Source: Escherichia phage vB_EcoM_Skers. From it: a stretch of 64,000 bases of DNA. The translations under genes were made by a program, and so were the position numbers. This document shows, piece after piece, positions 11,165-63,305 of the stretch (the first letter of the stretch is position 1; the number at the start of each line of letters is the position of its first letter). The notes below the pieces were generated by a model that worked only from the letters and a program-made list of their open reading frames with translations, was not told where the DNA came from and searched no databases. Location of the stretch: the sequence record MW748999.1; one strand, given 5' to 3'.

Positions 11165-11193
11165 ATTATGATATACACCCTCTGTTATGTCAA
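11165..11193 (-). promoter_or_regulatory. PeSL-type early promoter cassette
   Basis: Minus strand TTGACA-N17-CATAAT; palindrome GGGTGTAT/ATACACCC spans the -10; followed by SD and ATG. Confidence 0.7.
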
Positions 11194-11199
11194 CAACTT

Positions 11200-11379
11200 T
11201 TAGAACATTTTTGAAATTAATTCTGCTTTGATTTCGCAGAGAACATCTAAAGATTTCTCGTCACCTGCTTTTGCGGCTTCTGCTTGCATTTTTGAAATGG
11301 CTTCAATGTCAGTGCAATTATAAGCCGCTTGAACTTTAGCGATTGCGATGATTGCCGATTCGATGGTTAAGTGTTTCAT
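11200..11379 (-). CDS. Hypothetical small protein (59 aa), not in ORF track
   Basis: ATG at 11377-11379 with SD GGAGAATCAAAC; PeSL promoter upstream; translation MKHLTIESAIIAIAK.... Confidence 0.45.
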   Translation of the reverse strand: MKHLTIESAIIAIAKVQAAYNCTDIEAISKMQAEAAKAGDEKSLDVLCEIKAELISKMF

Positions 11380-11411
11380 GTTTGATTCTCCTTTCGTTTC
11401 GGTATGTGTGT

Positions 11412-11440
11412 ATTATAGGGGATCGATGATCCCCTGTCAA
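11412..11440 (-). promoter_or_regulatory. PeSL-type early promoter cassette
   Basis: TTGACA-N17-TATAAT with 17-nt palindromic spacer GGGGATCatcGATCCCC. Confidence 0.75.
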
Positions 11441-11447
11441 CAACTTT

Positions 11448-11966
11448 TTAGTTATTTTTTAATTGCTCATCTTGCAATAGGGCAATCACATGCTGGCGAT
11501 GCTCTTCCGATTGAGGCACACCGAAAAAGTTTGTTTTGTAGAAATACTCTAATCGGTCTTCTCGTGTGCTCTCTTCCATCATGATCGCTGGTAGTCCGAG
11601 ATTTCGGAAACGTCGCTTTTCTGCTGGAGTAAAATCACTGTAATACAACATAGAATCATCATTACCAGCAATGCTAAACTCATCCTTCATAAAGGAGAAT
11701 ATTGCGTTTAAACGCTGTTTACCGTCCACGATTTCGATCTCATAGCGAGAGCCATCATCAATCTTAGCCATTGCGATAGCACCAACCGGAAAATCATTAA
11801 TAAGGTTTTCGATAAACATACGTTTGTTTTCTGTGTCCCATACTAAAGGACGCTGATAATCTGGGTTCATGTTGATATAGCCATCTTCTAACCATGCATC
11901 ATAAACAGAGATGACAAAGTTTTTAGTATTGGTATAGTAACGGCGTTTAGGCGTTAAACGGTTCAT
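11448..11966 (-). CDS. DUF262 (ParB-like / GmrS N-domain-like) protein
   Basis: DGKQRL (DGQQR-type) motif and PDYQRPLVW; start trimmed to ATG 11966 with SD AGGAG; last gene of five-gene operon. Confidence 0.6.
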   Translation of the reverse strand: MNRLTPKRRYYTNTKNFVISVYDAWLEDGYINMNPDYQRPLVWDTENKRMFIENLINDFPVGAIAMAKIDDGSRYEIEIVDGKQRLNAIFSFMKDEFSIAGNDDSMLYYSDFTPAEKRRFRNLGLPAIMMEESTREDRLEYFYKTNFFGVPQSEEHRQHVIALLQDEQLKNN

Positions 11967-11967
11967 G

Positions 11968-12300
11968 TTATAGTCTCCTGAATGGATCATCACGTAAATC
12001 AATATCTTTTAAGAACTCCTCCCATGAATGGCGGATATTGTTCTTAATTCTCCAGATAAGAGCAGGGATTGAACGCTCTCCCATCTGGAAGTATGGATCA
12101 TATGATCCATATGCCCAATATGCTACTACAATTCCACAATCAGCGCAATAATATTCTATTTCACTTGCTGGCGACCAAAGTCCATCAATATGATCGGTGA
12201 TCTTGCTTTCGATGTTATGGCTATGACAATCAGGGCAACGGATGCAATGACCTTGTTTATCGTAATTTGACGTTAGAGAATACTTAAACAATCTCATCAT
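11968..12300 (-). CDS. Zinc-ribbon protein (110 aa)
   Basis: CIRCPDCHSH ... YYCADCG (CxxC ... CxxC); ATGA overlap with upstream gene. Confidence 0.6.
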   Translation of the reverse strand: MMRLFKYSLTSNYDKQGHCIRCPDCHSHNIESKITDHIDGLWSPASEIEYYCADCGIVVAYWAYGSYDPYFQMGERSIPALIWRIKNNIRHSWEEFLKDIDLRDDPFRRL

Positions 12301-13013
12301 AGATCCTTATTTGCTTCAAATACTGCCTTTGCGAATCCTCGCGGGGTAAGTGACCTTATAGTCTTTGTTTTCGTTCCTTTCCCGCCTAGCTTAGAATGCT
12401 GTTTACTGTACCCTTTATTAATCTGCAAAGGTTTCTTTTCTGGCATTATAAAGCCTTGTCCGGTCCATAAGCAAGTCTTTTTCGGGTACATATCACGGGC
12501 GGCAATATACTCAGGAAACGTAGGATGCTTATCATCTTCCGGCAAATAACCGCCATATTCCCACGGATGGAACATATAATCAGGCTTACGCCACATGCTA
12601 GAGATAACGCTTACAGGATTCTCTATCATGTAGGGAACTCCTAGCCATTCACCCAAATACGCGGTTATTTTGGCTGCCCTTACATCATGAACTTGAATCA
12701 ATGGTCCTTGTTCTCGTTTCTTTCGTTCAAAGTGCGCAGCGCCACTAACAGCTAAATTGGTGCACGGTGGGAATGCAAAGATAATATCCGGTTTCCCCCA
12801 TTCAAGGTCCATTGCTCTTTCCAGCCAGTTCAAATCAATCCAGGTGTTTACATAGGTAATGTTTGGATGTTCAAATCGGGTATTATACTTTTTGTATGTG
12901 CCGTGGTCGGCGTCATCCGCATTAAAGCAGACTACCTTATGACCTGCTTTAGCCCATTCTAGCCCCATTATCCCCGATCCGTCAAAGTTGCAGAATATTA
13001 ATTTTTGTTTCAT
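12297..13013 (-). CDS. Minimal C5-cytosine methyltransferase-fold protein (no target recognition domain)
   Basis: Motif I FDGSGIMG (FxGxG), motif IV FPPCTNLAVSG (PC catalytic Cys), motif VI ENP (ENV-like), C-terminal RSLTPRGFAKAV (R.LTPRE-like). Confidence 0.6.
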   Translation of the reverse strand: MKQKLIFCNFDGSGIMGLEWAKAGHKVVCFNADDADHGTYKKYNTRFEHPNITYVNTWIDLNWLERAMDLEWGKPDIIFAFPPCTNLAVSGAAHFERKKREQGPLIQVHDVRAAKITAYLGEWLGVPYMIENPVSVISSMWRKPDYMFHPWEYGGYLPEDDKHPTFPEYIAARDMYPKKTCLWTGQGFIMPEKKPLQINKGYSKQHSKLGGKGTKTKTIRSLTPRGFAKAVFEANKDL

Positions 13014-13255
13014 ATACGCCCCTTTAATCCAACACAGATTTTAGAAGGTTCTTTGCCGTGCCACATTAAGTAAAGTCCGTTAATGCGGCCTTGTTTTGTA
13101 TATGATTCTTTTCTGATCTTCTTATAGTGTCGTGCTTCCTCAACCGATTGTTTAGAATACCAATCATAAAGGAAGAGGCACAAAGGCCAACCATTAGCGG
13201 CCTTAATGCAGTTATTAAGAAATTCCTTATTGCGTTTAATTAATTTTCTTTTCAC
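13010..13255 (-). CDS. Hypothetical protein (81 aa), GTG start
   Basis: GTG start with SD GGGGG; overlap-coupled in operon. Confidence 0.5.
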   Translation of the reverse strand: MKRKLIKRNKEFLNNCIKAANGWPLCLFLYDWYSKQSVEEARHYKKIRKESYTKQGRINGLYLMWHGKEPSKICVGLKGRI

Positions 13256-13503
13256 GCTGCCCCCATTGGTTTGATAGTAACAGAATCTAAAAGACCTTTG
13301 TTAGCCAGTTCGCGGCAAGTTTTCAGATCCGCAACTTCCCAGCCAGCCGCAATCAGGTTATCAATGAGGCTGTTAGCAACTTCTTCGCTCATGAAAGAGC
13401 ACTGTTTGCCGATGGTGTAGCGTACACGCTGTAATTTCAGTTTACGGAAGCCTTTAACGTTCAGGTCTTTAGCGATTTTCTTTGCGGTTTCGATGTTAGC
13501 CAT
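13252..13503 (-). CDS. Hypothetical protein (83 aa), first gene of operon
   Basis: ATG with SD AGGAG directly downstream of PeSL promoter. Confidence 0.6.
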   Translation of the reverse strand: MANIETAKKIAKDLNVKGFRKLKLQRVRYTIGKQCSFMSEEVANSLIDNLIAAGWEVADLKTCRELANKGLLDSVTIKPMGAA

Positions 13504-13543
13504 TGTTTGATTCTCCTAAGTGGTATCTCGTCTTGATGGTTGT

Positions 13544-13572
13544 ATTGTAGGGGAGTTATCCTCCCCTGTCAA
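13544..13572 (-). promoter_or_regulatory. PeSL-type early promoter cassette
   Basis: TTGACA-N17-TACAAT; spacer is the palindrome GGGGAGgataaCTCCCC. Confidence 0.75.
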
Positions 13573-13586
13573 CACTTTTTATAAAA

Positions 13587-13754
13587 TCATTTGTTAATTT
13601 CTGGTGCGTTGCTAGGATAGTAACCTTCTTTAACTCCGAGGTATTTCGCAACCATCCCTACAATCTTCTGTGCTACTACAATGTCAAATTTCAGATAATC
13701 TTCGCCGTGGGTTTCAATGATATATGCTTCACATGCTGCTTTCGTCTCGAACAT
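13587..13754 (-). CDS. Hypothetical small protein (55 aa); paralog of 16858..17025
   Basis: Start trimmed to ATG 13754 (MFETKAACEAY...); the ORF-track N-terminus runs into the promoter. Confidence 0.6.
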   Translation of the reverse strand: MFETKAACEAYIIETHGEDYLKFDIVVAQKIVGMVAKYLGVKEGYYPSNAPEINK

Positions 13755-13787
13755 TTTGATTCTCCTATATCTCGTTGGTATGTGTGT

Positions 13788-13815
13788 AGTATAGGGGATC
13801 ACCGATCCCCGTCAA
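13788..13815 (-). promoter_or_regulatory. PeSL-type early promoter cassette
   Basis: TTGACG-N16-TATACT with palindrome GGGATCggtGATCCC; almost identical to cassette at 17060..17088. Confidence 0.7.
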
Positions 13816-13829
13816 CAACTTTTTTAAAA

Positions 13830-14111
13830 TTATTCGTGATTAGTTTCGATGTTGTGCATTTTGCACCAGTTCAGCCAATCGCCCAGATCCTGATAGTTGA
13901 TGCTTTTATCTGCTGCCATCGTTTTTGTCTTGATACCCATATGTGCGTTATGAGTAAGCATTTTTACAGTGAACTCGATTTTATCGCCTTTAGCTTTAAC
14001 ATCAACCAGTTTGGTCCACTGGCTACCAGCGCCGCGAATGTTCATACCAACGATGTTTCCGATGTATGCTTCTTTGTTTTTCAGGATTTCGGTTGCTTTG
14101 ATGAATTTCAT
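13830..14111 (-). CDS. Hypothetical protein (93 aa)
   Basis: ORF with SD; PeSL promoter upstream. Confidence 0.6.
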   Translation of the reverse strand: MKFIKATEILKNKEAYIGNIVGMNIRGAGSQWTKLVDVKAKGDKIEFTVKMLTHNAHMGIKTKTMAADKSINYQDLGDWLNWCKMHNIETNHE

Positions 14112-14145
14112 TGTTTGATTCTCCAGTTCGTTTCGGTATGGGTGT

Positions 14146-14174
14146 ATTATGCTATGTTCTTACTTTGGTGTCAA
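14146..14174 (-). promoter_or_regulatory. PeSL-type early promoter (degenerate, no palindrome)
   Basis: TTGACA-N17-CATAAT; conserved UTR CGAAACGAACT. Confidence 0.65.
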
Positions 14175-14183
14175 CAACTTTTT

Positions 14184-14453
14184 TTAGATATTTTCAGAAA
14201 TAAATTTTAAAACTTGACGTAAATGTTTCTCATCTTTGATAGTCGCCGGAAGTTCTTCTTTTACTTCCTGTGCAAGATAGATATTTCCGTTCCAAGTGAA
14301 AGATCCGTCTTCGTTTACGCGATAGCTGAACATCCACTCGCAATCATTTTCGATTTCATATACACACAGAAGGGTGTAATCGTTAAAGCTATTGATTTCA
14401 AGGTCGAAGCCGTGGCGTTTTGCAAAGTTGGTAGTGGTTTTAGTCAGTGCCAT
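14184..14453 (-). CDS. Hypothetical protein (89 aa)
   Basis: ORF with SD AGGAG; promoter upstream. Confidence 0.6.
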   Translation of the reverse strand: MALTKTTTNFAKRHGFDLEINSFNDYTLLCVYEIENDCEWMFSYRVNEDGSFTWNGNIYLAQEVKEELPATIKDEKHLRQVLKFISENI

Positions 14454-14493
14454 TGTTTGATTCTCCTAAGTGGTATCTCGTTTCGATGTGTGT

Positions 14494-14522
14494 ATTATGC
14501 TATAGGCGTGATCTGGTGTCAA
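14494..14522 (-). promoter_or_regulatory. PeSL-type early promoter (degenerate)
   Basis: TTGACA-N17-CATAAT. Confidence 0.65.
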
Positions 14523-14540
14523 CAACTTTTTTAATTTTTT

Positions 14541-14573
14541 GGAAATAAAAAAAGCCGACACTAAGGTCGGCTA
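14541..14573 (-). terminator. Intrinsic terminator
   Basis: AGCCGAC-loop-GTCGGCT followed by TTTTTTTATTT on minus strand, after 14580..14891. Confidence 0.65.
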
Positions 14574-14941: not shown

Positions 14942-15229
14942 TTAAAACAGTCCTTCCTGTACACCGTAGTAGAGTTCATCGCTGATAATTTCATTAATGC
15001 GACGGTGTGCATATTCCTGATTTGCGAAGTTATCAGCAAGTTCTACTTTAGTTTCGCCGTCATGAGTCCATTTAGTGATAACTTTACCATCTGCAAATTT
15101 GAAGTTGAACTCTTTAGCTACCGCATCGCGTACCAGACGTGCAAACTTATTGTTGCGGATTGCATTGTCGGTTTCGTGTGCAGCGTGAGCGAATTTGTTA
15201 ACTTTCAGGGTGATAGTAATGTATGCCAT
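14942..15229 (-). CDS. Hypothetical protein (95 aa)
   Basis: ORF with SD; PeSL upstream. Confidence 0.6.
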   Translation of the reverse strand: MAYITITLKVNKFAHAAHETDNAIRNNKFARLVRDAVAKEFNFKFADGKVITKWTHDGETKVELADNFANQEYAHRRINEIISDELYYGVQEGLF

Positions 15230-15275
15230 AATTTGATTCTCCTAGTTAGAAAGTGTATCTCGTTTCGATGGGTGT

Positions 15276-15304
15276 ATTATGCTATACACCCGATCTTATG
15301 TCAA
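15276..15304 (-). promoter_or_regulatory. PeSL-type early promoter cassette
   Basis: TTGACA-N17-CATAAT; palindrome GGGTGTAT/ATACACCC. Confidence 0.7.
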
Positions 15305-15310
15305 CACTTT

Positions 15311-15589
15311 TTATAAAATAATTTTTTGATATTTTTCTATGATGTTCGTGTAAGTCACATCAACCGCTAGCACCGTTGCTTCGAATCCACCGTTTAGCCA
15401 ATGGCTATGATCATGATCGTGAAAGAAACCTAGACCAGTACGAAGACCTTCTTTATATTCTGCGCGTACATTCAGTTTGTCGTCGATAAACAGATAAAAC
15501 CATGAATTTTTACTAGGATTGATGATACAACCTTTCAGATTAGGGAGAATATCACGACTAAGAATAAACTTATCACCTACTTTGAACAT
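15311..15589 (-). CDS. HxHW-motif small protein family member (92 aa)
   Basis: FIDDKL, HDHSHW, LAVDV. Confidence 0.6.
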   Translation of the reverse strand: MFKVGDKFILSRDILPNLKGCIINPSKNSWFYLFIDDKLNVRAEYKEGLRTGLGFFHDHDHSHWLNGGFEATVLAVDVTYTNIIEKYQKIIL

Positions 15590-16612: not shown

Positions 16613-16792
16613 TTAGAAAGGGATGGTCATTTCTTGAGCTTGTACATTCTCGTTAGGATTAAACTTCATCCAACCGATATTGTCTACCAGCATATGCACA
16701 TTTTTATCATATCCTACGTGAGTAGTCAACACTAAATGTGCTTTACCTTCAACGATGATTTCCATGTACTTCTGAACTTCGATAGCTTTCAT
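16613..16792 (-). CDS. Hypothetical small protein (59 aa), not in ORF track
   Basis: ATG 16790-16792 after SD GGAGAATCAAAA and PeSL promoter; translation MKAIEVQKYMEIIVEGK.... Confidence 0.45.
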   Translation of the reverse strand: MKAIEVQKYMEIIVEGKAHLVLTTHVGYDKNVHMLVDNIGWMKFNPNENVQAQEMTIPF

Positions 16793-16825
16793 TTTTGATT
16801 CTCCGTTTGTTGTCTTGATGGGAGT

Positions 16826-16854
16826 ATATTACTACTCCCTTTAATCATTGTCAA
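16826..16854 (-). promoter_or_regulatory. PeSL-type early promoter cassette
   Basis: TTGACA -35; palindrome GGGAGTA/TACTCCC spans AT-rich -10. Confidence 0.65.
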
Positions 16855-16857
16855 CTA

Positions 16858-17025
16858 TTATTTGTTAATTTCCGGTGCGTTGCTCGGATAGTAACCTTCT
16901 TTAACACCCAGATATTTCGCAACCATTCCGGTGATCTTCTGTGCTACTACGATATCGAATTTCAGGTAGTCTTCACCGTGGTTTGCTACAATGTATGCTT
17001 CGCATTCTGCTTTAGTCTGGAACAT
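16858..17025 (-). CDS. Hypothetical small protein (55 aa); paralog of 13587..13754
   Basis: MFQTKAECEAYIVANHGEDYLKFDIVVAQK... near-identical to 13587..13754 product. Confidence 0.55.
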   Translation of the reverse strand: MFQTKAECEAYIVANHGEDYLKFDIVVAQKITGMVAKYLGVKEGYYPSNAPEINK

Positions 17026-17059
17026 TTTTGATTCTCCTATATCTCGTTGGTATGTGTGT

Positions 17060-17088
17060 AGTATAGGGGATCACCGATCCCCTGTCAA
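17060..17088 (-). promoter_or_regulatory. PeSL-type early promoter cassette
   Basis: TTGACA-N17-TATACT with palindromic spacer GGGGATCggtGATCCCC. Confidence 0.75.
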
Positions 17089-17096
17089 CAACTTTT

Positions 17097-17399
17097 TTAT
17101 TCTTCGTCTTTATCTTTATATGCGTATTTCATAAATTTGTCTGCTACTTCATCGGCATGTTCCGATTCTACGTCGGATTCGAGAACAATAGCAAGATCGG
17201 TTTCGTCGTTTCCGTCATACCAATGATTATGGGTATCGTTTTCTTCGATATAGAATGAGTCATTTGGAGTTGGACGACAATATACATCTAAATTCTCATC
17301 GATGTAAAAGATCCAATCTTCGTAAAGAATAACCGTATTAGCCAGATTTTTATTGCCTTCAACGAAAGGTTCAGCTACAAATAGCTTAGTTTGTTCCAT
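17097..17399 (-). CDS. HxHW-motif small protein family member (101 aa)
   Basis: Start trimmed to ATG 17399; YIDENL, THNHW. Confidence 0.55.
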   Translation of the reverse strand: MEQTKLFVAEPFVEGNKNLANTVILYEDWIFYIDENLDVYCRPTPNDSFYIEENDTHNHWYDGNDETDLAIVLESDVESEHADEVADKFMKYAYKDKDEE

Positions 17400-17415: not shown

Positions 17416-17607
17416 TTATACAGCTTCGTAAACTTCCCAATGTTCAGCGCCAGCACGCTTAACGAAAAGGTTTTCTTTGATGTTATTCATAAACGTCTGG
17501 ATGGATTTAATGCGGTTGGAAGGTTTCCAGTCTTCGTTGGAATTGCGTCGATACATCATAACATTACCAGATCGCTTATATTCAGCAACCATTTTAAGAC
17601 CACACAT
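17416..17607 (-). CDS. Hypothetical protein (63 aa)
   Basis: ORF with SD GGAGG-like upstream. Confidence 0.5.
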   Translation of the reverse strand: MCGLKMVAEYKRSGNVMMYRRNSNEDWKPSNRIKSIQTFMNNIKENLFVKRAGAEHWEVYEAV

Positions 17608-17663
17608 AATATTATCCTCAATTTGTGGGAGAGTATTACCCTCCCGATTATTGTTATACTACA

Positions 17664-17966
17664 TTACGCAAAATGGCGTGTCAATGCTTCTTTTGCTGTT
17701 CCGCTAAGATTCTCGATCTCTCCTGGCATAACATCAACCGCCAGAACTTCTACAACATCCTCTGATCCTAACCAGTGAGTATGACCTTTGTAGAACTTGA
17801 TATCCCATTTATCGCTATCGCTAGCCCACCACACATCACCGTCGATAAAGTTGATGTAAAGCACACTACGACACATTGAATTAATTACTTTCAATACTGC
17901 GCCTTTCATATCTTCCACGGTATGGTCTTCCATTTTGAAGACCTCACCTACCTGAACTTTTGCCAT
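17664..17966 (-). CDS. HxHW-motif small protein family member (100 aa)
   Basis: GHTHW, LAVDV. Confidence 0.6.
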   Translation of the reverse strand: MAKVQVGEVFKMEDHTVEDMKGAVLKVINSMCRSVLYINFIDGDVWWASDSDKWDIKFYKGHTHWLGSEDVVEVLAVDVMPGEIENLSGTAKEALTRHFA

Positions 17967-17983: not shown

Positions 17984-18163
17984 TTACATAACAATCACGC
18001 CAGCCGTTGAAAGTTGATGTTTCAACTGAGCATTTTCTGCTACTGTCAAATCAATGATTTCTTGTGACGCTGCAATCATATAGCCATTGGTGATATTGTT
18101 TTTCATCAGTTCAATGGTTTCTTCGTTGTAGCGGATTTTAGCGATGATTTCGTTGAAGTTCAT
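17984..18163 (-). CDS. Hypothetical small protein (59 aa)
   Basis: Start trimmed to ATG 18163 downstream of PeSL promoter (MNFNEIIAKIRYN...). Confidence 0.5.
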   Translation of the reverse strand: MNFNEIIAKIRYNEETIELMKNNITNGYMIAASQEIIDLTVAENAQLKHQLSTAGVIVM

Positions 18164-18197
18164 GTTTGATTCTCCTAGTTCGTTTCGGTATGTGTGT

Positions 18198-18226
18198 AGT
18201 ATAGGGGATCGGTGATCCCCTGTCAA
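18198..18226 (-). promoter_or_regulatory. PeSL-type early promoter cassette
   Basis: TTGACA-N17-TATACT; spacer palindrome GGGGATCaccGATCCCC. Confidence 0.75.
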
Positions 18227-18239
18227 CAACTTTTTTGAA

Positions 18240-18716
18240 TTATTTTTCTTGATGCTCGCGCTCGTACTTTTCGAAATAAAATTCTACTGGCTGGTCGTGG
18301 ATTGACAGTAAGCCAAAGCGTTTAGCCGCTCGCAATCCCATATTGCGCTGAATGTACTTCTGGAAGTTCTCGCGTATACACTTACGCCAGTATTCTAAGC
18401 CCATACAGCTTTTATAAAGATTGCATTGCACACATGCCGGATTCATGTTATCAAGTATATCATGCTCCGGTTTATGCATTCCTACAACCTTATACTTCCA
18501 CGATCCATCATCATTACGGGCAATTCGTCCATTTTCATCATAGACTACCTTTGAGCGTCGCAATACTGGTTTGATGTGGTCTGCGTGCCAGCGATCCCCT
18601 AGTTCCTCGCCACAATAGGCACAACGTCCACCATATTTCATTTTCAGGATCTGGCGTTGCTCTTTCTTTGACAATTTTTTAGGTTTAGGGGCTTTCGCCC
18701 CTTCATTATCACACAT
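18240..18716 (-). CDS. HNH endonuclease
   Basis: CAYCGEEL ... WHADHIKPV ... NMNPACVQCNLYK (HNH / zinc-finger nuclease motif). Confidence 0.75.
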   Translation of the reverse strand: MCDNEGAKAPKPKKLSKKEQRQILKMKYGGRCAYCGEELGDRWHADHIKPVLRRSKVVYDENGRIARNDDGSWKYKVVGMHKPEHDILDNMNPACVQCNLYKSCMGLEYWRKCIRENFQKYIQRNMGLRAAKRFGLLSIHDQPVEFYFEKYEREHQEK

Positions 18717-25620: not shown

Positions 25621-26019
25621 TTAACTTTCCAGAATATCGCGAGCTTCGTTACGCTCCTTGATGATTTTCAGGACAAATTCCAGTTTTTCTTTGTTCAGTG
25701 TTCCGTTTTCCATTGCTTCTTTGACGGTAAACACTCCGCCACCTTGCCCGTATACAGTGACAGTGATTTCACCTAACATCGTGGTATGAAAACCGCCAAT
25801 TTTCGGTGATTCGAAAGAAACAATTACCTCGCGGACATTATTACCGTCGTTGATTTCTGAGAGGGTAATGTCGTTTTTGTAGGCGGTTGCTTTAACCATA
25901 CGGATCAGCATAGTCTGATCTGGGGAGATGGTCATTTTGTCCATTGCATGTTGCAATGCAGCGTAACCGAAAACTTTAACGAAGTCCAGAACGTCTTTGC
26001 GAGTTTGAAATTTAATCAT
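25621..26019 (-). CDS. Hypothetical protein (132 aa)
   Basis: ORF with SD AGGAG downstream of PeSL. Confidence 0.6.
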   Translation of the reverse strand: MIKFQTRKDVLDFVKVFGYAALQHAMDKMTISPDQTMLIRMVKATAYKNDITLSEINDGNNVREVIVSFESPKIGGFHTTMLGEITVTVYGQGGGVFTVKEAMENGTLNKEKLEFVLKIIKERNEARDILES

Positions 26020-26060
26020 CTTGATACTCCTTAGTAAGTTAGTTTCGTTTCGATGGGGGT

Positions 26061-26089
26061 ATATTACTACCCCCGTTTCATGCTGTCAA
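26061..26089 (-). promoter_or_regulatory. PeSL-type early promoter cassette
   Basis: TTGACA -35; palindrome GGGGGTA/TACCCCC; -10 TAATAT. Confidence 0.65.
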
Positions 26090-26308
26090 CTACTTTTTAA
26101 TGACAAGTTCGAATTTTGCTACCTTGCGTCCTCGTTTATTGAAAGCAACCCACGGACGGTTTTCAATGTAGAACAATTCTTCACCAATAATGAATACTGG
26201 CTGATTGTAAAGGCGACCCATCAGGTCACGCTGGCGAATGGTAGTAGATTCGTATACTTCTCCTACTACAAAGTGTTTGCTGATAGAGTCGGTGCAAGTA
26301 AATTTCAT
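26090..26308 (-). CDS. Hypothetical protein (72 aa)
   Basis: ORF with SD after PeSL. Confidence 0.55.
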   Translation of the reverse strand: MKFTCTDSISKHFVVGEVYESTTIRQRDLMGRLYNQPVFIIGEELFYIENRPWVAFNKRGRKVAKFELVIKK

Positions 26309-26341
26309 TTTGATTCTCCTTTGTTTCGTTTCGATGGGGGT

Positions 26342-26370
26342 ATATTACTACCCCCGTTATTCAGTGTCAA
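26342..26370 (-). promoter_or_regulatory. PeSL-type early promoter cassette
   Basis: TTGACA; palindrome GGGGGTA/TACCCCC; near-duplicate of 26061..26089. Confidence 0.65.
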
Positions 26371-26377
26371 CTACTTT

Positions 26378-26596
26378 TTACTTGTTGTATTCATTCCACC
26401 ATTGAGTGAGCTTATCAATTATTTTTGTGTTTCTATCCAACTTATCCCACCGTTTTCGAGGGTTTATCAACCGGAATAGGTAAGGTGTACTTGTTAAGTG
26501 GACTCGGTCAATATAGTGATTGATGTACTGTTTTTCGATTCTAAGTTTCATCTTTTTACGATGAAAATATGCAATGACTTGTTCTTCTGTTTCCAT
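26378..26596 (-). CDS. Hypothetical protein (72 aa)
   Basis: ORF with SD GGAGGAA. Confidence 0.55.
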   Translation of the reverse strand: METEEQVIAYFHRKKMKLRIEKQYINHYIDRVHLTSTPYLFRLINPRKRWDKLDRNTKIIDKLTQWWNEYNK

Positions 26597-26620
26597 ATGT
26601 TCCTCCGTTTCGATGTGCGT

Positions 26621-26649
26621 ATTATGCTATGGCAAGATCCGATTATCAA
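26621..26649 (-). promoter_or_regulatory. PeSL-type early promoter (degenerate)
   Basis: TTGATA-N17-CATAAT. Confidence 0.55.
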
Positions 26650-26656
26650 CACCCAA

Positions 26657-26686
26657 TAACAAAAAAGTCGCCACTATGGGCGACTT
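26657..26686 (-). terminator. Intrinsic terminator downstream of HAD gene
   Basis: GTCGCCcatagtGGCGAC followed by TTTTTTGTT on minus strand. Confidence 0.6.
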
Positions 26687-26696
26687 TGAACAAACA

Positions 26697-28713: not shown

Positions 28714-28880
28714 TATCCTACAACCTCAAAACATTTATCATCGGGAAGAATAGCCCATTCTACGCCGTATTCATCCTCAACGTAGTAGCAAGTCCCATCA
28801 TATCGAGCCTCATATACATCACCGACAACAAAGCTATCAGCTAGCTCAAAATCTACAGCAACACATTTTAATTTGGTCAT
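28713..28880 (-). CDS. Hypothetical small protein (55 aa)
   Basis: Start trimmed to ATG 28880 (SD GAGGA) downstream of PeSL promoter. Confidence 0.5.
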   Translation of the reverse strand: MTKLKCVAVDFELADSFVVGDVYEARYDGTCYYVEDEYGVEWAILPDDKCFEVVG

Positions 28881-28911
28881 AATAAAATCCTCACTTGTTT
28901 TTGATGGTTGT

Positions 28912-28940
28912 ATTATAGCGGGGATTTCTCCCCGCGTCAA
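28912..28940 (-). promoter_or_regulatory. PeSL-type early promoter cassette
   Basis: TTGACG-N17-TATAAT; spacer palindrome CGGGGAgaaaTCCCCG. Confidence 0.75.
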
Positions 28941-28948
28941 CACTTATT

Positions 28949-33415: not shown

Positions 33416-33745
33416 TCAAATCAGTTTAAAGAAGTTTTCGTTTACATTTTCTTCTGTGATCTCGGTTTTAAATTCATTACCATCATCGGGAGAAACATAA
33501 TAGCGTTCGGAATAATCACGCCACATTTTCAGTAAGCTGACACCAACATTAACACCGTTTTCCCAGAAACGGAATACAATTTTATGTGCGGTGTAACGAT
33601 AATCACTTTGAATTAAGCTGCCATCCCCGCGACGAGATTCATAAACCGTAATACAATCGCGGTTAGCGGCGTTAAGACATTCTTCAATAGTCCCGCATGA
33701 GACAATTTCGGTTGATTCGTCTACGATTTTTTCTACTGTCCACAT
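33416..33745 (-). CDS. Hypothetical protein (109 aa)
   Basis: ORF with SD GAGGA downstream of PeSL. Confidence 0.55.
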   Translation of the reverse strand: MWTVEKIVDESTEIVSCGTIEECLNAANRDCITVYESRRGDGSLIQSDYRYTAHKIVFRFWENGVNVGVSLLKMWRDYSERYYVSPDDGNEFKTEITEENVNENFFKLI

Positions 33746-33776
33746 AATATAATCCTCTCTTTGTTTCGATGTTTGT

Positions 33777-33804
33777 ATTATACACTGTTGCGTTACGCTG
33801 TCAA
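33777..33804 (-). promoter_or_regulatory. PeSL-type early promoter (no palindrome)
   Basis: TTGACA-N16-TATAAT. Confidence 0.6.
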
Positions 33805-34971: not shown

Positions 34972-35001
34972 AATTTTATCCTCCTTTGTTTCGATGTTTG
35001 T

Positions 35002-35029
35002 ATTATACATCCTAACATCAGCATGTCAA
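35002..35029 (-). promoter_or_regulatory. PeSL-type early promoter (no palindrome)
   Basis: TTGACA-N16-TATAAT. Confidence 0.6.
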
Positions 35030-35049
35030 CACCTTTTTCATAAAAATTT

Positions 35050-35081
35050 AGGCAATAAAAAAGCCTCCCCGAAGGGAGGCT
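35050..35081 (-). terminator. Intrinsic terminator downstream of gene 32
   Basis: AGCCTCCCttcgGGGAGGCT followed by TTTTTTATTGCC on minus strand. Confidence 0.7.
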
Positions 35082-36066: not shown

Positions 36067-36126
36067 AATTATACCTCTTTATACATTAACTATTGATTAA
36101 TTTACGTTTTATACTATATCAGATAC

Positions 36127-49602: not shown

Positions 49603-49606
49603 CAAC

Positions 49607-49626: not shown

Positions 49627-49638
49627 GGAGTATAAATT

Positions 49639-53260: not shown

Positions 53261-54019
53261 TTACTTGCAAACGTATTGATCTACATCAATTGCGCCACCG
53301 AATGTAGGATGACGTTTTTCAAATCGAATAGTTCCGTCGTTTGGTTCGAAAACGGAGTATTCATATAGATCTTTCTTACCAACATTCTTATAAAACCCGC
53401 CTTTAGTCATAACGGTTTCTTGTACGTTTGCTTTGTGTACGTTGTATTCATCAATGTATACAAAATCAACCATCTTCCCATTTTTAATGGTTACTTTAAG
53501 ATCCCCTGGCTGGTTTCCATATTTTGCATACAGTGGAGCCTCTTTAATTTTGGTGGAAATTCCATCTTTCATACTCCACTCATAACGAACGGTGCATTGA
53601 TAGGTAAAAGTTTCGTCCTTCGGTTCTTCCACCACTTTTTCTTCCTGTTTCGGTTGTTCTTCGTCAACCTTTGCAGAAGTCTCTGAATCGCTTTCTGACG
53701 CGGTTTCTTCTTTAGGTAATACATTCATCAAGTTTTGGATTTGAGCGTTGTATACAGCCTCCAGTGGCTGAATCTGCCCGATATTGATCATTGTATCACG
53801 AACAGTTTTATTCCAGTTACGTTGTTCTTGTTTCAGAGATGGATCAATCTTAACAGCCTTAACATATACTTCATGAAGTTTCGAATCCAGTGCGGAAATT
53901 GACTCATTAGCACAAATAAACTTCTCTGATTTGGTAGTGGCTTTAGCGCAATCGAAGGACGCAGCATTAGCACCGAATGCAGTAGCAGAAAGAACGATAG
54001 CAGCGATAATGTTTTTCAT
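53261..54019 (-). CDS. Secreted protein with DUF1311 (LprI-like) N-terminal domain
   Basis: Signal peptide MKNIIAAIVLSATAFGANA; pattern C...T..E..IC...LD..L..Y...QR.W...RD. Confidence 0.55.
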   Translation of the reverse strand: MKNIIAAIVLSATAFGANAASFDCAKATTKSEKFICANESISALDSKLHEVYVKAVKIDPSLKQEQRNWNKTVRDTMINIGQIQPLEAVYNAQIQNLMNVLPKEETASESDSETSAKVDEEQPKQEEKVVEEPKDETFTYQCTVRYEWSMKDGISTKIKEAPLYAKYGNQPGDLKVTIKNGKMVDFVYIDEYNVHKANVQETVMTKGGFYKNVGKKDLYEYSVFEPNDGTIRFEKRHPTFGGAIDVDQYVCK

Positions 54020-54053
54020 AATATATTCCTCAGTGTTTTGTCTTGATGGGAGT

Positions 54054-54082
54054 ATATTACTACTCCCTTAATCCGGTGTCAA
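54054..54082 (-). promoter_or_regulatory. PeSL-type early promoter cassette
   Basis: TTGACA; palindrome GGGAGTA/TACTCCC; -10 TAATAT. Confidence 0.65.
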
Positions 54083-54089
54083 CTACTTT

Positions 54090-54245
54090 TTAAATTTCTT
54101 CTACAGTAAAGTCTTCAATGTTGTTGTGCTCGGAGAACGTTGCCAAACCAGCATCCCATGCATCATCCTCAGAGAAGAATACACCGTAACGTTCATATCC
54201 CTTAGCGCCTTCAAATTTAACCATTAATTTGTGAGTATGTTTCAT
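54090..54245 (-). CDS. Hypothetical small protein (51 aa)
   Basis: Start trimmed to ATG 54245 downstream of PeSL promoter. Confidence 0.45.
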   Translation of the reverse strand: MKHTHKLMVKFEGAKGYERYGVFFSEDDAWDAGLATFSEHNNIEDFTVEEI

Positions 54246-54276
54246 TTTGATTCTCCTTCGTTGTCTTGATGAGTTT

Positions 54277-54305
54277 AGTATAGGGGATCGCCGATCCCCT
54301 GTCAA
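54277..54305 (-). promoter_or_regulatory. PeSL-type early promoter cassette
   Basis: TTGACA-N17-TATACT; spacer palindrome GGGGATCggcGATCCCC. Confidence 0.75.
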
Positions 54306-54319
54306 CCAGTTTTTAGAAA

Positions 54320-54580
54320 TTATTTTCGCCATTCACCGGAAACAATGAAGTTTGTAAAGTGATTGTGGTCCGTGATAATGTCATTAAGTACCATATGCGG
54401 ATATGCTTTAGTGTAATCACGTTTACGATCAGTCATCCAACCAACGAAAGTCGGTGCAAAGTACGGCACACCGTCAGATGATGCCATATTAAACCCTTTA
54501 TCAGCCATAAATGCAGCCGCCCTAAGATTTTTAATTGAAGTAGTGCGACTAATTTCAAAAACTTTATCAGTAAAATTCAT
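54320..54580 (-). CDS. Hypothetical protein (86 aa)
   Basis: ORF after PeSL promoter. Confidence 0.5.
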   Translation of the reverse strand: MNFTDKVFEISRTTSIKNLRAAAFMADKGFNMASSDGVPYFAPTFVGWMTDRKRDYTKAYPHMVLNDIITDHNHFTNFIVSGEWRK

Positions 54581-54792
54581 TTTAAGCCCCCCGCTCGTGC
54601 ATTAATACGCATTTTCTGAATAGCCATGATCTGGCTTACTGCTTCTTCTTTACGTTCTTGCGTGATAACGTGACCAGATTCCGCAAACTCTCCAGCAACT
54701 TCTTCTACGATCTCGCGAACTTGAGAACGTCCAAAGATGCGGTTTCCTTCGTAGCTCATAAACTCTGTTACTACTTGCTCGATAGATTTCAT
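54577..54792 (-). CDS. Hypothetical protein (71 aa)
   Basis: ORF with SD AGGAG after PeSL. Confidence 0.55.
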   Translation of the reverse strand: MKSIEQVVTEFMSYEGNRIFGRSQVREIVEEVAGEFAESGHVITQERKEEAVSQIMAIQKMRINARAGGLK

Positions 54793-54821
54793 GTGATTCT
54801 CCTTTTGTTTGGTATGGGAGT

Positions 54822-54850
54822 ATGTTACTACTCCCTTATCTTTACGTCAA
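54822..54850 (-). promoter_or_regulatory. PeSL-type early promoter cassette
   Basis: TTGACG -35; palindrome GGGAGTA/TACTCCC. Confidence 0.6.
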
Positions 54851-54857
54851 CTAGTTT

Positions 54858-55100
54858 TTAGAAATTTTTCGCTTCTTCTTCGGTCATCATCACCGCGCAT
54901 TCGTGCATAACTTTGAAAACCGGGTCAATCATATCGAATGCTTCGCGAGACAATTTACGAGAAGCGATTTTGATTGCTTCAACGTCTTCTACTACAGGAA
55001 CAAAAACAGTTTTCAGTTCATCGAGAACGGCAGCTTCTTTTTCATTCAGGAAGATTCCAGCGTCGTACAATGCAACTTCGATAACATTAACTTTAACCAT
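54858..55100 (-). CDS. Hypothetical protein (80 aa)
   Basis: Start trimmed to ATG 55100 (SD GGAGGAAATAAAA) after PeSL. Confidence 0.5.
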   Translation of the reverse strand: MVKVNVIEVALYDAGIFLNEKEAAVLDELKTVFVPVVEDVEAIKIASRKLSREAFDMIDPVFKVMHECAVMMTEEEAKNF

Positions 55101-55134
55101 TTTTATTTCCTCCAGTTCGTTTCGGTATGGGAGT

Positions 55135-55163
55135 ATAATACTACCGATGACCTTTGGCGTCAA
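55135..55163 (-). promoter_or_regulatory. PeSL-type early promoter (degenerate)
   Basis: TTGACG-N17-TATTAT. Confidence 0.5.
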
Positions 55164-55365
55164 CTAGTTTTTTGTTATTTTCGTGAAATTTTTTCGTCGC
55201 CTCATGTGCTTTTCGCTGGGCTTCTAGTTGTGCTTTCTGGCGTGCTGCCTCTTGTGAAGCCATAACGGAAGCATTTGCAGCAGTTACAGCCGCGACCATC
55301 GCTGCGGTATTAGCATTTACCGTACATGCACTAGCCAGCAAAGCAATCGCAATCATTTTCTTCAT
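55141..55365 (-). CDS. Small secreted protein (74 aa)
   Basis: N-terminal signal peptide MKKMIAIALLASACTVNA; Ala/Lys-rich mature region. Coordinates overlap the predicted promoter, so one of the two calls may be wrong. Confidence 0.45.
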   Translation of the reverse strand: MKKMIAIALLASACTVNANTAAMVAAVTAANASVMASQEAARQKAQLEAQRKAHEATKKFHENNKKLVDAKGHR

Positions 55366-55532
55366 AGTTTCCCCTTTAGGTTATCTTCGACCTTCACCCA
55401 TTCCGCGTATTCTTGCGCGGCTACTTTCGGATTTAGTCCGTCTTCGTACATTGCTTCAAGTAATTCTTCGTCGGTGGGCTTATACCCTAGATAAGCCTCC
55501 ACCTGATTTTTCCAAATTTTATACCAGTTCAT
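55362..55532 (-). CDS. Hypothetical small protein (56 aa)
   Basis: Start trimmed to ATG 55532. Confidence 0.4.
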   Translation of the reverse strand: MNWYKIWKNQVEAYLGYKPTDEELLEAMYEDGLNPKVAAQEYAEWVKVEDNLKGKL

Positions 55533-55536: not shown

Positions 55537-55809
55537 TCACCAATCAAGAGCGCGTGTCTCTGCGTCTTCCCATGCTTGATCCATAACAGCCTTGAAAACA
55601 TATTCTAGAGTATCATCTTTAGAGAATCCGAAGACTTTAGACGGAATATCTTCAATTGCTACTCCCGCAACTTCTGCATTACGCGCTTGGCAATAATGCA
55701 ACTCTAAGTTATCGAGATAGCGACCGCCTAATTTCTCCATATCATCCCAACATTTCCAGTAACCTACTTTATCTGCAATTGCCAACACTTTGCTGTTTTC
55801 GTTGTTCAT
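55537..55809 (-). CDS. Hypothetical protein (90 aa)
   Basis: Start trimmed to ATG 55809 (SD GGAGAATCAAAG) after PeSL. Confidence 0.5.
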   Translation of the reverse strand: MNNENSKVLAIADKVGYWKCWDDMEKLGGRYLDNLELHYCQARNAEVAGVAIEDIPSKVFGFSKDDTLEYVFKAVMDQAWEDAETRALDW

Positions 55810-55840
55810 CTTTGATTCTCCTTTTGTTTGGTATGGGTGT

Positions 55841-55869
55841 ATTATGCAATGCTGGATTATGGAAGTCAA
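55841..55869 (-). promoter_or_regulatory. PeSL-type early promoter (degenerate)
   Basis: TTGACT-N17-CATAAT. Confidence 0.55.
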
Positions 55870-55878
55870 ACAACTTTT

Positions 55879-55912
55879 CAAATAAAAAAAAGCCGACCAC
55901 AAGGATCGGCTT
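55879..55912 (-). terminator. Intrinsic terminator
   Basis: AAGCCGATCCttgtGGTCGGCTT followed by TTTTTTTATTT on minus strand; same hairpin as 44669..44699 in opposite orientation. Confidence 0.7.
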
Positions 55913-59908: not shown

Positions 59909-59962
59909 TCCTCTATTAGTTGGGCGACTATCGCCGCCCGATTCACATCATTATACCAGAAT

Positions 59963-60093
59963 TATTTTGCTTCGACAACCTTGCGGATTGTGCGGTCTGA
60001 TACATTATAGATTCGTGCCAGTTCGCCTTTAGTCAAGCCGCGAGCGTATTGTTTACGGATGGTTTCTTTCTGGATAGCGGTCAGTTTAGTCAT
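59963..60093 (-). CDS. Small HTH protein (43 aa), not in ORF track
   Basis: MTKLTAIQKETIRKQYARGLTKGELARIYNVSDRTIRKV; resembles rIIB N-terminal HTH. Confidence 0.35.
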
Positions 60094-62213: not shown

Positions 62214-62227
62214 AATATAATCCTCAC

Positions 62228-62485
62228 TTAATTAAAATCTTCTTTGTCCATCTCTGCGTAAATTACATCCCACGCCCATAAATCAATAAACGCATTATAT
62301 GTCACGGTGCAATCGTTGTCAATCACTTCTTTCGCATATTTCTTGATGTTTTCGTAGGAAACTTGCGGATCAATTTTGTGTTTACGAAGATGCGCATATT
62401 CATACCTCAAACACTCCATAAACAGGTCCATCGATTTCTTTTCTCGATGACACTTGGCGATCATAAAATCAAAACTTCGACTCAT
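62228..62485 (-). CDS. Hypothetical protein (85 aa)
   Basis: ORF with SD GGAG. Confidence 0.5.
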   Translation of the reverse strand: MSRSFDFMIAKCHREKKSMDLFMECLRYEYAHLRKHKIDPQVSYENIKKYAKEVIDNDCTVTYNAFIDLWAWDVIYAEMDKEDFN

Positions 62486-62495
62486 TTTCTACTCC

Positions 62496-62690
62496 TTATA
62501 CATTTTCAATCACCCATTGCAGATGGGCTTCTGCGTCAACCAGTTCAGCGCGGCTTTTCTCTAAGCACTTGCTGTATTCTTTACGTTCCCACTCGGCAAT
62601 TTCGTTTTTCAGGACTTCTTCATAGTAAGCAATTACGCCTTTCAGATCGGAAACTTTACGGCTTGCCAGTTCGATGTAATGGTTACGCAT
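62496..62690 (-). CDS. Hypothetical protein (64 aa)
   Basis: ORF with SD AGGAG. Confidence 0.5.
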   Translation of the reverse strand: MRNHYIELASRKVSDLKGVIAYYEEVLKNEIAEWERKEYSKCLEKSRAELVDAEAHLQWVIENV

Positions 62691-62877
62691 TTTGATTCTC
62701 CTTTGTTACTAGATAACGAATTTGGTCTTGCATTGCAATCAGTTCCCAGCGTGCTACTTTCATCATAGAAACCGACTCTTTGAACATAATATTAGCTTTT
62801 TCCTTATCCCCTGTCAAGTAGATTTCTGCAATTTTTTCACAAAATTTTTGAGTTTCTTCATTCTTAAACGGTTTCAT
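62683..62877 (-). CDS. Hypothetical protein (64 aa)
   Basis: Start trimmed to ATG 62877 (track used upstream TTG); PeSL upstream. Confidence 0.5.
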   Translation of the reverse strand: MKPFKNEETQKFCEKIAEIYLTGDKEKANIMFKESVSMMKVARWELIAMQDQIRYLVTKENQNA

Positions 62878-62907
62878 ATAAGTCAACCTTTTGTTTTCGA
62901 TGGGGAT

Positions 62908-62936
62908 ATTATGATATATCCCCGATCCGGTGTCAA
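62908..62936 (-). promoter_or_regulatory. PeSL-type early promoter cassette
   Basis: TTGACA-N17-CATAAT; palindrome GGGGATAT/ATATCCCC. Confidence 0.7.
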
Positions 62937-62943
62937 CAGATTT

Positions 62944-63243
62944 TTAATCTTTTTTCAGTGCATCCATTACTCGCTCTGCGATCAGTTCTCTTAAGCACTG
63001 ATAACCATGATATTTGATGGCAATGTCACGCAGATCATTAACCAGTTCCCGTACTTCATGGTCTTTCAGATCGTCTCTGTATTTCGATTTAATCGTATCT
63101 TTAGGTGGATTGCGGATAACCTGAAAACCTTGTTCTGCAATCACTGCGGCTTCTCGCTGGCGTTCATGCTGTACTGTATTTTTGATCAGGTCTGCTTCCA
63201 TGAACTTTGCCACACTCATCATCATGTTATTCTTTTTGCTCAT
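62944..63243 (-). CDS. Hypothetical protein (about 99 aa)
   Basis: Start trimmed to ATG 63243 (SD GAGGA) after promoter. Confidence 0.5.
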   Translation of the reverse strand: MSKKNNMMMSVAKFMEADLIKNTVQHERQREAAVIAEQGFQVIRNPPKDTIKSKYRDDLKDHEVRELVNDLRDIAIKYHGYQCLRELIAERVMDALKKD

Positions 63244-63277
63244 CGTTAAATCCTCATAAAAGAAAAGGGAGACTCCC

Positions 63278-63305
63278 ATTATAGAGAATCTCCCTTGTAT
63301 GTCAA
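63278..63305 (-). promoter_or_regulatory. PeSL-type early promoter cassette
   Basis: TTGACA-N16-TATAAT with GGGAG/CTCCC palindrome, immediately after gene 39 stop. Confidence 0.65.

Follow-up and report, generated by a model that had tools for sequence, protein, structure and literature searches.

Promoter-early stem-loop cassettes and gene gain and loss in a 64,000-nucleotide stretch of Escherichia phage vB_EcoM_Skers

Promoter-early stem-loops (PeSLs) were described in phages RB49 and Phi1 by Arbiol et al. 2010 (PMC2839356), who counted approximately 51-52 copies per genome, concentrated in hyperplastic regions upstream of ORFans. The elements fall into five subclasses by hairpin position, the commonest two having the hairpin between the -35 and -10 hexamers or overlapping the -10. 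In that study the promoter of RB49 PeSL206/205 yielded approximately 13,000 Miller units in a lacZ assay and the hairpin of PeSL211/210 reduced downstream lacZ about as much as rrnB T1. The gain and loss of ORFans was ascribed to recombination between PeSLs, excised mini-circles were detected, and no integrase was reported in RB49 or Phi1 beyond the usual T4-type recombination genes. According to Nolan 2006, RB49 lacks MotA and middle promoters, and its early consensus is in agreement with 5'-end mapping. Here we analysed 64,000 nucleotides of Escherichia phage vB_EcoM_Skers (MW748999.1; the window), in which a preliminary description had noted at least 23 promoter cassettes with palindromes between positions 11165 and 63305. 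Our results make it highly probable that these cassettes are the PeSLs of an RB49-like phage, that is, strong early promoters, mostly combined with hairpins, in cassettes that also serve as crossover substrates.

Composite elements of this kind are known from several systems. The PeSL-like elements of T4/PST and KVP40/nt-1 (Comeau et al. 2014, PMC4122927) are likewise promoter-terminator motifs bordering variable genes of hyperplastic regions; according to Arbiol et al. 2010, however, those of the T-even phages are analogs in which weaker, AT-rich hairpins accompany early promoters of the T4 type, and they are not sequence homologs of the present cassettes. Lambdoid morons (Hendrix et al. 2000, as discussed by Arbiol et al. 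2010) are also single accessory genes bearing their own promoter and terminator, but they have no conserved repeat at their flanks and are believed to insert illegitimately, whereas here the regulatory cassette is itself the repeated homology. Integron cassettes share with the present system arrays of small genes in one orientation, hairpin-forming repeats between them (attC) and circular excised intermediates. In contrast to integrons, no integrase or attI is known here, although the window was not searched systematically for an integrase, each PeSL unit has its own promoter, and exchange apparently proceeds by general homologous recombination.

The closest match is with the PeSLs of RB49 and Phi1 themselves. 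The cassettes of the window share with them the phage genus, the hyperplastic regions, the layout, the five hairpin positions and the link to ORFan gain and loss, and do not differ from them in kind. What is particular to the window is its pattern of gene presence and absence, since it lacks ORF192, ORF195-196.1, ORF210, ORF211 and ORF226 and has extra genes at 54097-54590 and 54871-55375. The cassettes are thus already known, being in part orthologs of an element family that has been described, and partly tested, in the same phage genus.

The cassette family and its relation to described PeSLs

The window belongs to a Krischvirus, an RB49-like T4-type coliphage of the Straboviridae, and is approximately 96-98% identical to RB49, Phi1, AV108 and others; megablast of 10-20 kb and 52-64 kb matched about 60 phage records, nearly all of them Escherichia or Shigella Krischvirus at 95-98% identity. 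It is collinear with RB49 (NC_005066) from approximately 103.6 kb to the end of that record and then through positions 1-3896, RB49 position 1 falling at window position 60105, in rIIA. The minus strand carries, in order, alt, the ORF185-212 hyperplastic region, ligase, gp31, cd, pseT, rnlA, denA, nrdB, nrdA, td, frd, gene 32, gene 59 and rnh. After a block of tail-fibre genes on the plus strand, the order returns to the minus strand with the ORF255-268 hyperplastic region, gene 52, rIIB, rIIA and gene 39. The first cassette-rich stretch is the ORF185-212 region, the same region where PeSLs were defined and tested.

Between 11165 and 63305 we found 25 promoter cassettes, in line with the minimum of 23 proposed earlier, and a 26th lies outside that range at 8781. 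All are on the minus strand, as had been claimed, and each occupies an intergenic gap. The candidate list came from a relaxed scan (TTGACN, 16-18 nt, [TC]ANNNT) together with searches for hairpins and for a Shine-Dalgarno (SD) sequence followed by ATG. A profile hidden Markov model (HMM) was built from 21 clear copies and extended from the 20 nt before the -35 through the first 17 nt after the -10. It recovered all 21 training copies at E<1e-7 and one degenerate copy absent from the earlier description (26649, with -35 TTGATA, at E 5e-4), and gave no plus-strand match with E<1 in the window. These 22 cassettes therefore constitute one sequence family; with three composite promoters outside this tight family (63305, 17684 and 36141) they make up the 25. 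The pattern TTGACN-N16-18-TANNNT matched 49 times on the minus strand versus 5 times on the plus strand, and GGGGATCNNNGATCCCC was found 5 times, exactly at sites named in the preliminary description, versus 0.01 expected in shuffles. Each of the ten positions given there coincides with the last base of the -10 hexamer of a real cassette; the start of its range, 11165, is the -10 end of cassette 11193, and its end, 63305, coincides with the initial T of a TTGACA. A generic 9-of-12 sigma-70 scan was not enriched over shuffles (42 vs 34.5 and 68 vs 60.1) and is therefore useless as a test, the signal being confined to high-scoring composite sites and to the profile.

The copies share the layout first proposed for them, and the stretch 11100-11600 displays two complete cassettes. 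A stop codon within an AT-rich tract is followed by TTGAC(A/G/T), 16-17 nt, a -10 hexamer, a conserved leader, a GGAG-type SD and ATG. As in PeSLs, the hexamers are of the sigma-70 type, matching the consensus at 9-12 of 12 positions in all 26 copies, and the -35 is TTGACA in 19 of 26. The spacer is 17 nt in 21 of the 25 in-range copies and 16 nt in the other 4 (22 and 4 counting 8781). Family members also show the AT tract of PeSLs, the 25 nt that precede the -35 being 64-88% A+T. Most copies have 3-16 nt between the preceding gene's stop codon and the -35, and the distance is greater where a terminator intervenes (class C, below). From the -10 to the ATG the leader measures 29-48 nt, or 12 nt in the degenerate copy 26649. 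Its exact form ACCGAAACGA occurs in 5 copies only (11193, 11440, 14174, 18226 and 55163), and the shorter string CGAAACGA in about 10 by profile alignment. The SD and start codon expected of a PeSL are likewise present, the SD containing GGAG in 19 of 26 copies. This is also the motif at which T4 RegB is known to cleave. Two flavours of ribosome-binding site occur, GGAGAATCAAA-n-ATG in most copies and GAGGAT(T/A)nTATTATG in six (17684, 28940, 33804, 35029, 54082 and, loosely, 36141). The open reading frames (ORFs) downstream encode 51-392 amino acids.

Eleven copies lie in 10.9-18.3 kb (RB49 ORF185-212), 3 in 26.0-26.7 kb and 5 in 54.0-55.9 kb, and the window scan found none in the plus-strand baseplate and tail-fibre blocks. 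Like PeSLs, the cassettes thus cluster in hyperplastic regions, upstream of small genes without known function. The most specific motif, TTGACAGGGGATCNNNGATCCCCTATA, occurred in two IMG/VR contigs only, both Krischvirus-sized, and in 0 of 185,579 bacterial and archaeal genomes, indicating that the family is restricted to this lineage. We rejected a mobile-element reading (miniature inverted-repeat transposable elements or elements resembling repetitive extragenic palindromes) on the grounds of this distribution and because the copies always stand in one orientation, at gene starts. Sites 12985, 62817, 60364 and 62322 were not counted as cassettes, since they lie inside ORFs and lack leader, SD and ATG. 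Two of them are perfect 12/12 TTGACA-17-TATAAT promoters within minus-strand coding sequence, without hairpin or conserved leader: 60364-60336 falls in the 3' portion of rIIA, from where it would drive rIIB together with the small ORF 59962-60093, and 62322-62294 lies in the ORF 62228-62485.

The resemblance to the PeSLs of RB49-type phages that the preliminary description had pointed out extends to individual named elements. In regions collinear with RB49 at 93-98% identity, cassette 17088 is near-identical to PeSL206/205 when the printed pairs are compared by eye, ungapped match counts being lowered by register shifts. In cassette 18226 the part running from the AT tract to the end of the -10 corresponds to PeSL211/210 and the remainder, beginning with the leader, to PeSL210/209 (also near-identical by eye); ORF210 and ORF211 are missing from the window at this place. 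The hairpin of PeSL211/210 belongs to the spacer class (GGGGATcacgtATCCCC). Cassette 13815 matches PeSL192/191 at 71/104 positions ungapped and is the single PeSL between the ORF193 and ORF191 homologs, which is the Phi1 topology, RB49 having ORF192 inserted there. Furthermore, promoters were independently annotated at homologous sites in the GEC-3S record, and the position of 36141 is that of an annotated 'early RB49 promoter'. Promoter function in this phage is very likely because of the consensus hexamers, the orthology to a tested copy and the published RB49 5' mapping.

Hairpins and gene content at the cassettes

A perfect palindrome in the spacer had been ascribed to most copies, which proved to be the only inaccuracy of the preliminary description. 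The hairpin lies wholly in the spacer in 7 of 25 copies (class A) and straddles the -10 in 9 of 25 (class B), to which 8781 is added outside the range. In class B the spacer holds the left arm alone, the loop being formed by the -10 hexamer; every copy of the GGGAGTA/GGGGGTA palindrome class is of this kind. A separate hairpin with a T-run precedes the -35 in 4 of 25 (class C), and in 1 of 25 the hairpin is downstream of the -10 (class D). Overall, 22 of the 26 copies possess the stem-loop characteristic of PeSLs (7 in the spacer, 10 over the -10, 4 upstream and 1 downstream). Folding against shuffles gave z scores of -2.5 to -5.5 in 8 of 9 hairpin copies tested, 62936 reaching only -1.5, and approximately 0 in two copies lacking a hairpin. 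A T-run after the hairpin was seen only in the four class C copies and 63305 (6-7 T in these five) and, by eye, in 8781. These have the full form of a Rho-independent terminator, which the other hairpin cassettes resemble in carrying a GC-rich hairpin right after a stop codon; class A and B hairpins differ from such terminators in lacking a U-tract and in being embedded in the next promoter.

Among 170 cassettes from the window and its relatives, stems vary on both arms with pairing kept (GGGAGTA/TACTCCC, GGGGGTA/TACCCCC, GGGTGTAT/ATACACCC and GGGGATAT/ATATCCCC), and class A variation is mostly in the loop. In addition, GGGG...CCCC-type hairpins with a T-run are used as stand-alone terminators after gp31, ORF225, rnlA and ORF185. 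Together, the two-arm changes and the reuse of this hairpin type as a terminator favour a structural, terminator-like role.

Stand-alone GC-rich hairpins without a promoter also follow stop codons on the minus strand at 10910-10896, 20893-20875, 23997-23980 and 25614-25595. Their stems (GGGGC/GCCCC, GGCGGGA/TCCCGCC and GCGGGG/CCCCGC) have the same flavour as those of the cassettes, and a T-run directly follows three of them (10910, 23997 and 25614). An explanation of class A palindromes through Dam methylation was dropped, as GATC is over-represented throughout the window (351 vs 229 expected) and occurs in one hairpin class only.

Gene content around the cassettes was compared with that of nine relatives, using homologous regions from RB49, Phi1, GEC-3S, AV108, kaaroe, SFHK24, PHB13 and Brandy aligned to the window by local megablast. 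Cassette-flanked genes are gained, lost and replaced, with breakpoints inside cassettes, and such segments are not syntenic in every relative, as gene shuffling had led one to expect and as published for PeSLs. Internal alignment ends collapsed to 47 unique breakpoints, of which 20 fell within cassettes. The 26 footprints together make up 4.6% of the window, and under a uniform null the mean was 2.25 and the maximum 9 in 20,000 trials. Because repeats attract alignment ends, the association was retested at gene junctions, where a breakpoint was present at 15/26 cassette junctions versus 14/78 others (odds ratio (OR) 6.2, one-sided Fisher p 2e-4).

Nine gene-scale indels or replacements had cassettes at both ends. 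Four affected genes of the window (11200-11379, 13587-13754, 26090-26308 and 33793-34971) and the remainder genes of relatives, namely ORF192, ORF195-196.1, ORF210 (with ORF211), ORF226 and one SFHK24 ORF at 55.8 kb. Four further gene-scale events had a cassette at one end. Insertions in relatives were bracketed by alignments overlapping by 38-97 bp, showing that the cassette is repeated at both ends of the insertion. In PHB13, which lacks 11200-11379, a single chimeric cassette occupies the site, with the upstream half and spacer hairpin of the 11440 type and the leader, SD and start codon of 11193; judged by its sequence, this junction is a homologous crossover in the shared leader. A module consisting of a spacer-class cassette and a 55-amino-acid gene is moreover duplicated at 13587-13826 and 16857-17099, 3.3 kb apart. 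The two cassettes are identical (GGGGATCGGTGATCCCC, same leader), the proteins are 89% identical, and the genes correspond to RB49 ORF191 and ORF205.

Individual cassettes and neighbouring genes

All cassettes are given here with their minus-strand footprints. Within class A, 11440 (11377..11460) has a 12/12 TTGACA-17-TATAAT promoter, the hairpin AGGGGATCatcGATCCCCT at 11435..11417 and its ATG at 11379, and 13572 (13501..13592) has -10 TACAAT, the hairpin AGGGGAGgataaCTCCCCT at 13567..13549, ATG 13503 and a z score of -4.9. Cassette 13815 (13752..13835) reads TTGACG-16-TATACT with its hairpin at 13810..13794. The ortholog of PeSL206/205, 17088, spans 17023..17108 (hairpin 17083..17065; ATG 17025), and the PeSL211/210-PeSL210/209 chimera, 18226, spans 18161..18246 (hairpin 18221..18203; ATG 18163). 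The strongest fold (z -5.5) belongs to 28940 (28878..28960; TTGACG-17-TATAAT), with GCGGGGAgaaaTCCCCGC at 28935..28918 and ATG 28880. Cassette 54305 (54243..54325) carries AGGGGATCggcGATCCCCT at 54300..54282 and ATG 54245.

Three class B cassettes have their hairpin over a CATAAT hexamer. In 11193 (11126..11213; TTGACA-17-CATAAT; ATG 11128) and 15304 (15227..15324; ATG 15229) the arms are GGGTGTAT/ATACACCC, at 11180..11159 and 15291..15270, and in 62936 (62875..62956; ATG 62877) they are GGGGATAT/ATATCCCC, at 62923..62902. The arms GGGAGTA/TACTCCC are found in 16854 (16790..16874; hairpin 16839..16820 over TAATAT; ATG 16792) and 54082 (54017..54102; hairpin 54067..54048; ATG 54019), and GGGGGTA/TACCCCC in 26089 (26017..26109; hairpin 26074..26055 over TAATAT; ATG 26019) and 26370 (26306..26390; hairpin 26355..26336; ATG 26308). 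Cassette 54850 (54790..54870) reads TTGACG-17-TAACAT, with its hairpin at 54835..54816 and ATG 54792. Two members are composite promoter/terminators. Cassette 63305 (63241..63325; TTGACA-16-TATAAT, 12/12; ATG 63243; z -4.8) has a hairpin of 13 bp at 63296..63265, including 2 G-U pairs, whose loop is exactly the -10 and which is followed by TTCTTTTA. Upstream of the ORF183 homolog, 8781 (8718..8801; TTGACT-17-TATACT) has a bulged hairpin of approximately 12 bp with the -10 in the loop, followed by TTTTCTGTT (z -5.3).

In class C, 14522 (14451..14572) has an intrinsic terminator at 14572..14553, a T-run and TTGACA-17-CATAAT (ATG 14453); the degenerate 26649 (26594..26687) a terminator at 26687..26664, a T-run and TTGATA-17-CATAAT (ATG 26596); and 55869 (55807..55912) a terminator at 55912..55890, a T-run and TTGACT-17-CATAAT (ATG 55809). 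In 35029 (34969..35079) the hairpin (35079..35064) and the T-run that follows it lie past the gene 32 stop and precede TTGACA-16-TATAAT and ATG 34971. The looser composite of class D, 17684 (17605..17704), reads TTGACA-17-TAGTAT, with its hairpin at 17645..17627 and ATG 17607. Family cassettes without a hairpin are 14174 (14109..14194; TTGACA-17-CATAAT; ATG 14111; z 0.0) and 33804 (33743..33824; TTGACA-16-TATAAT, 12/12; ATG 33745), and in 55163 (55098..55183; TTGACG-17-TATTAT; ATG 55100) a class B hairpin has decayed, its left arm being mutated. The gene 32 early promoter, 36141 (36064..36161; TTGACA-17-TATAGT), is also without a hairpin.

Several neighbouring genes differ between relatives. 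A 199-amino-acid ORF (36127-36726, minus), inserted precisely at the boundary that separates the end of gene 59 from the early promoter of gene 32, carries HNH_3 and AP2 domains of the homing-endonuclease type. It is absent from all nine relatives compared and present in 11 other Krischvirus records at 84-100% identity, a sporadic distribution typical of a homing endonuclease gene. Beside nrdB (window 28351-28710), AV108 and SFHK24 have an annotated homing endonuclease gene (at 29080-29727 and 8956-9630 of the relatives' sequences), which in AV108 replaces the small ORFs 28373-28540 and 28540-28713 of the window and in SFHK24 is a pure insertion at approximately 28351-28356; no cassette stands at the ends of this difference. 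Between cassettes 35029 and 33804 lies a gene (33793-34971, minus) for a 392-amino-acid protein with CapR-homology and treble-clef zinc-finger domains. PHB13 has lost this gene by deletion, SFHK24 and Brandy have unrelated small ORFs in its place, and its similarity to RB49 ORF240 is only partial. The RB49 ORF187 homolog (11448-11990, minus), an early hyperplastic-region gene, contains a GmrSD N-terminal (DUF262) domain (E 6e-20); as this domain resembles those of restriction enzymes, its presence among early phage genes may have to do with defence or counter-defence. In the segment 54871-55375, absent from RB49 and AV108, a 74-amino-acid ORF (55141-55365, minus) has a signal-peptide-like N-terminus (MKKMIAIALLASACTVNA), lacks its own cassette and is apparently translationally coupled to the upstream gene.

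Two further features are unrelated to the cassettes or lie at the border of their regions. The distal tail-fibre region 46590-50425 had zero megablast match to RB49, AV108 and kaaroe, and only patches of approximately 70-74% by blastn, as in a host-range-type variable segment. At 51413-51440 an 11-12 bp GC-rich hairpin with T-runs on both strands resembles a bidirectional terminator and separates the convergent holin gene (plus) from the end of the second minus-strand hyperplastic region.

Proposed function and alternative explanations

We propose that each cassette acts as a strong sigma-70-type early promoter, with its AT-rich upstream tract, short conserved leader and uniform ribosome-binding site, and would drive one to a few small early genes. 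Most cassettes are fused to a G-rich/C-rich hairpin, which would form only in RNA read through from the upstream unit (or in DNA), because the cassette's own transcript would start downstream of it. The hairpin could then attenuate or terminate upstream transcription and so insulate each unit. We infer both promoter and terminator activity from the published assays on orthologous or paralogous RB49 copies. Since many gene junctions have a stretch of 65-100 bp in common, in one and the same orientation, crossover between copies is possible, and phage homologous recombination may in this way delete, insert or swap the genes between them.

A number of observations weigh against parts of this proposal. 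Four of the 25 copies have no hairpin (14174, 33804, 36141 and 55163). The seven class A and eight of the class B hairpins have only 1-3 T in the next 8 nt, and a terminator scan of the coding strand did not pick up class A and B hairpins; thus by sequence rules alone they are not canonical intrinsic terminators. Published termination concerns one class A RB49 hairpin only, in a reporter plasmid. The lack of a U-tract would also suit hairpins that mainly stabilise or process the 3' ends of upstream mRNA, as exonuclease barriers or RNase sites, and canonical T-run terminators elsewhere in the same genome show that the phage uses T-runs where firm termination is needed. We nevertheless regard this explanation as quite unlikely, since the PeSL211/210 hairpin lowered lacZ comparably to rrnB T1 (Arbiol et al. 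2010), which is unexpected for a pure 3'-end stabiliser. Alternatively, the palindromes might act not as RNA hairpins but as double-stranded DNA or cruciform sites for a dimeric phage protein, such as an early-promoter repressor or a structure-specific nuclease or recombinase. Class A palindromes occupy the promoter spacer exactly, with a nearly invariant stem and no U-tract, a GGGG...CCCC-binding protein was speculated upon by Arbiol et al. 2010, and in RB49, which is without MotA-type middle transcription (Nolan 2006), another form of early shut-off is conceivable. However, stem sequence differs between classes with pairing kept. The hairpin also takes five different positions relative to the promoter, one of them being that of upstream terminators with T-runs, which fits an operator less well than an RNA element whose action does not depend on position. 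Non-Watson-Crick pairs in 75 hairpins were sense-strand G-U (2 vs 0 A-C), with 2 more in 63305, too few for significance or to separate an RNA from a DNA role. Given in addition that a class A hairpin alone lowered downstream lacZ in vivo (Arbiol et al. 2010), a DNA-site role appears very improbable.

The part of the cassettes in recombination also has to be weighed against a simpler account, in which strong early promoters with nearby terminators are alike through functional constraint and local duplication, have no causal role, and coincide with the ends of indels only for the reason that a whole-gene indel has to terminate in intergenic DNA to be viable. When only gaps of at least 40 nt are considered, the enrichment weakens (14/24 cassette vs 4/18 other, OR 4.9, p 0.02). 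Seven gene-scale indels have no cassette at either end, at least three of them involving homing-endonuclease genes. Alignment ends are drawn into any repeated sequence, the breakpoint statistics rest on nine related genomes that are not independent samples, and no recombinase is known (Arbiol et al. 2010). In contrast, a causal role is supported by the chimeric cassette of PHB13, with its crossover in the shared leader, and by the duplicated cassette sequence that brackets insertions. Furthermore, mini-circles obtained by inverse polymerase chain reaction have chimeric PeSLs, and T4-type recombination needs homology patches of less than 50 bp only (Arbiol et al. 2010). Coincidence without a causal role therefore seems unlikely to us, and we favour cassettes that are both early promoters and crossover substrates.

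It is conceivable, though we think it improbable, that GGGG...CCCC hairpins are extruded or recognised by a phage nuclease or DNA-binding protein that starts recombination. If so, the hairpins would make this an integron-like, actively targeted gene shuffling without an integrase, a possibility raised by Arbiol et al. 2010. The present result opens no new question and is mainly one of annotation, fixing about 25 early transcription units and explaining gene-content differences exactly at these sites. The link between breakpoints and cassettes, for which a single phage pair was the original basis, is also seen in the comparison with nine further Krischvirus genomes. Few concrete mechanisms have been put forward to explain how T4-type phages gain and lose small accessory genes in modular fashion, and PeSLs are one of them.

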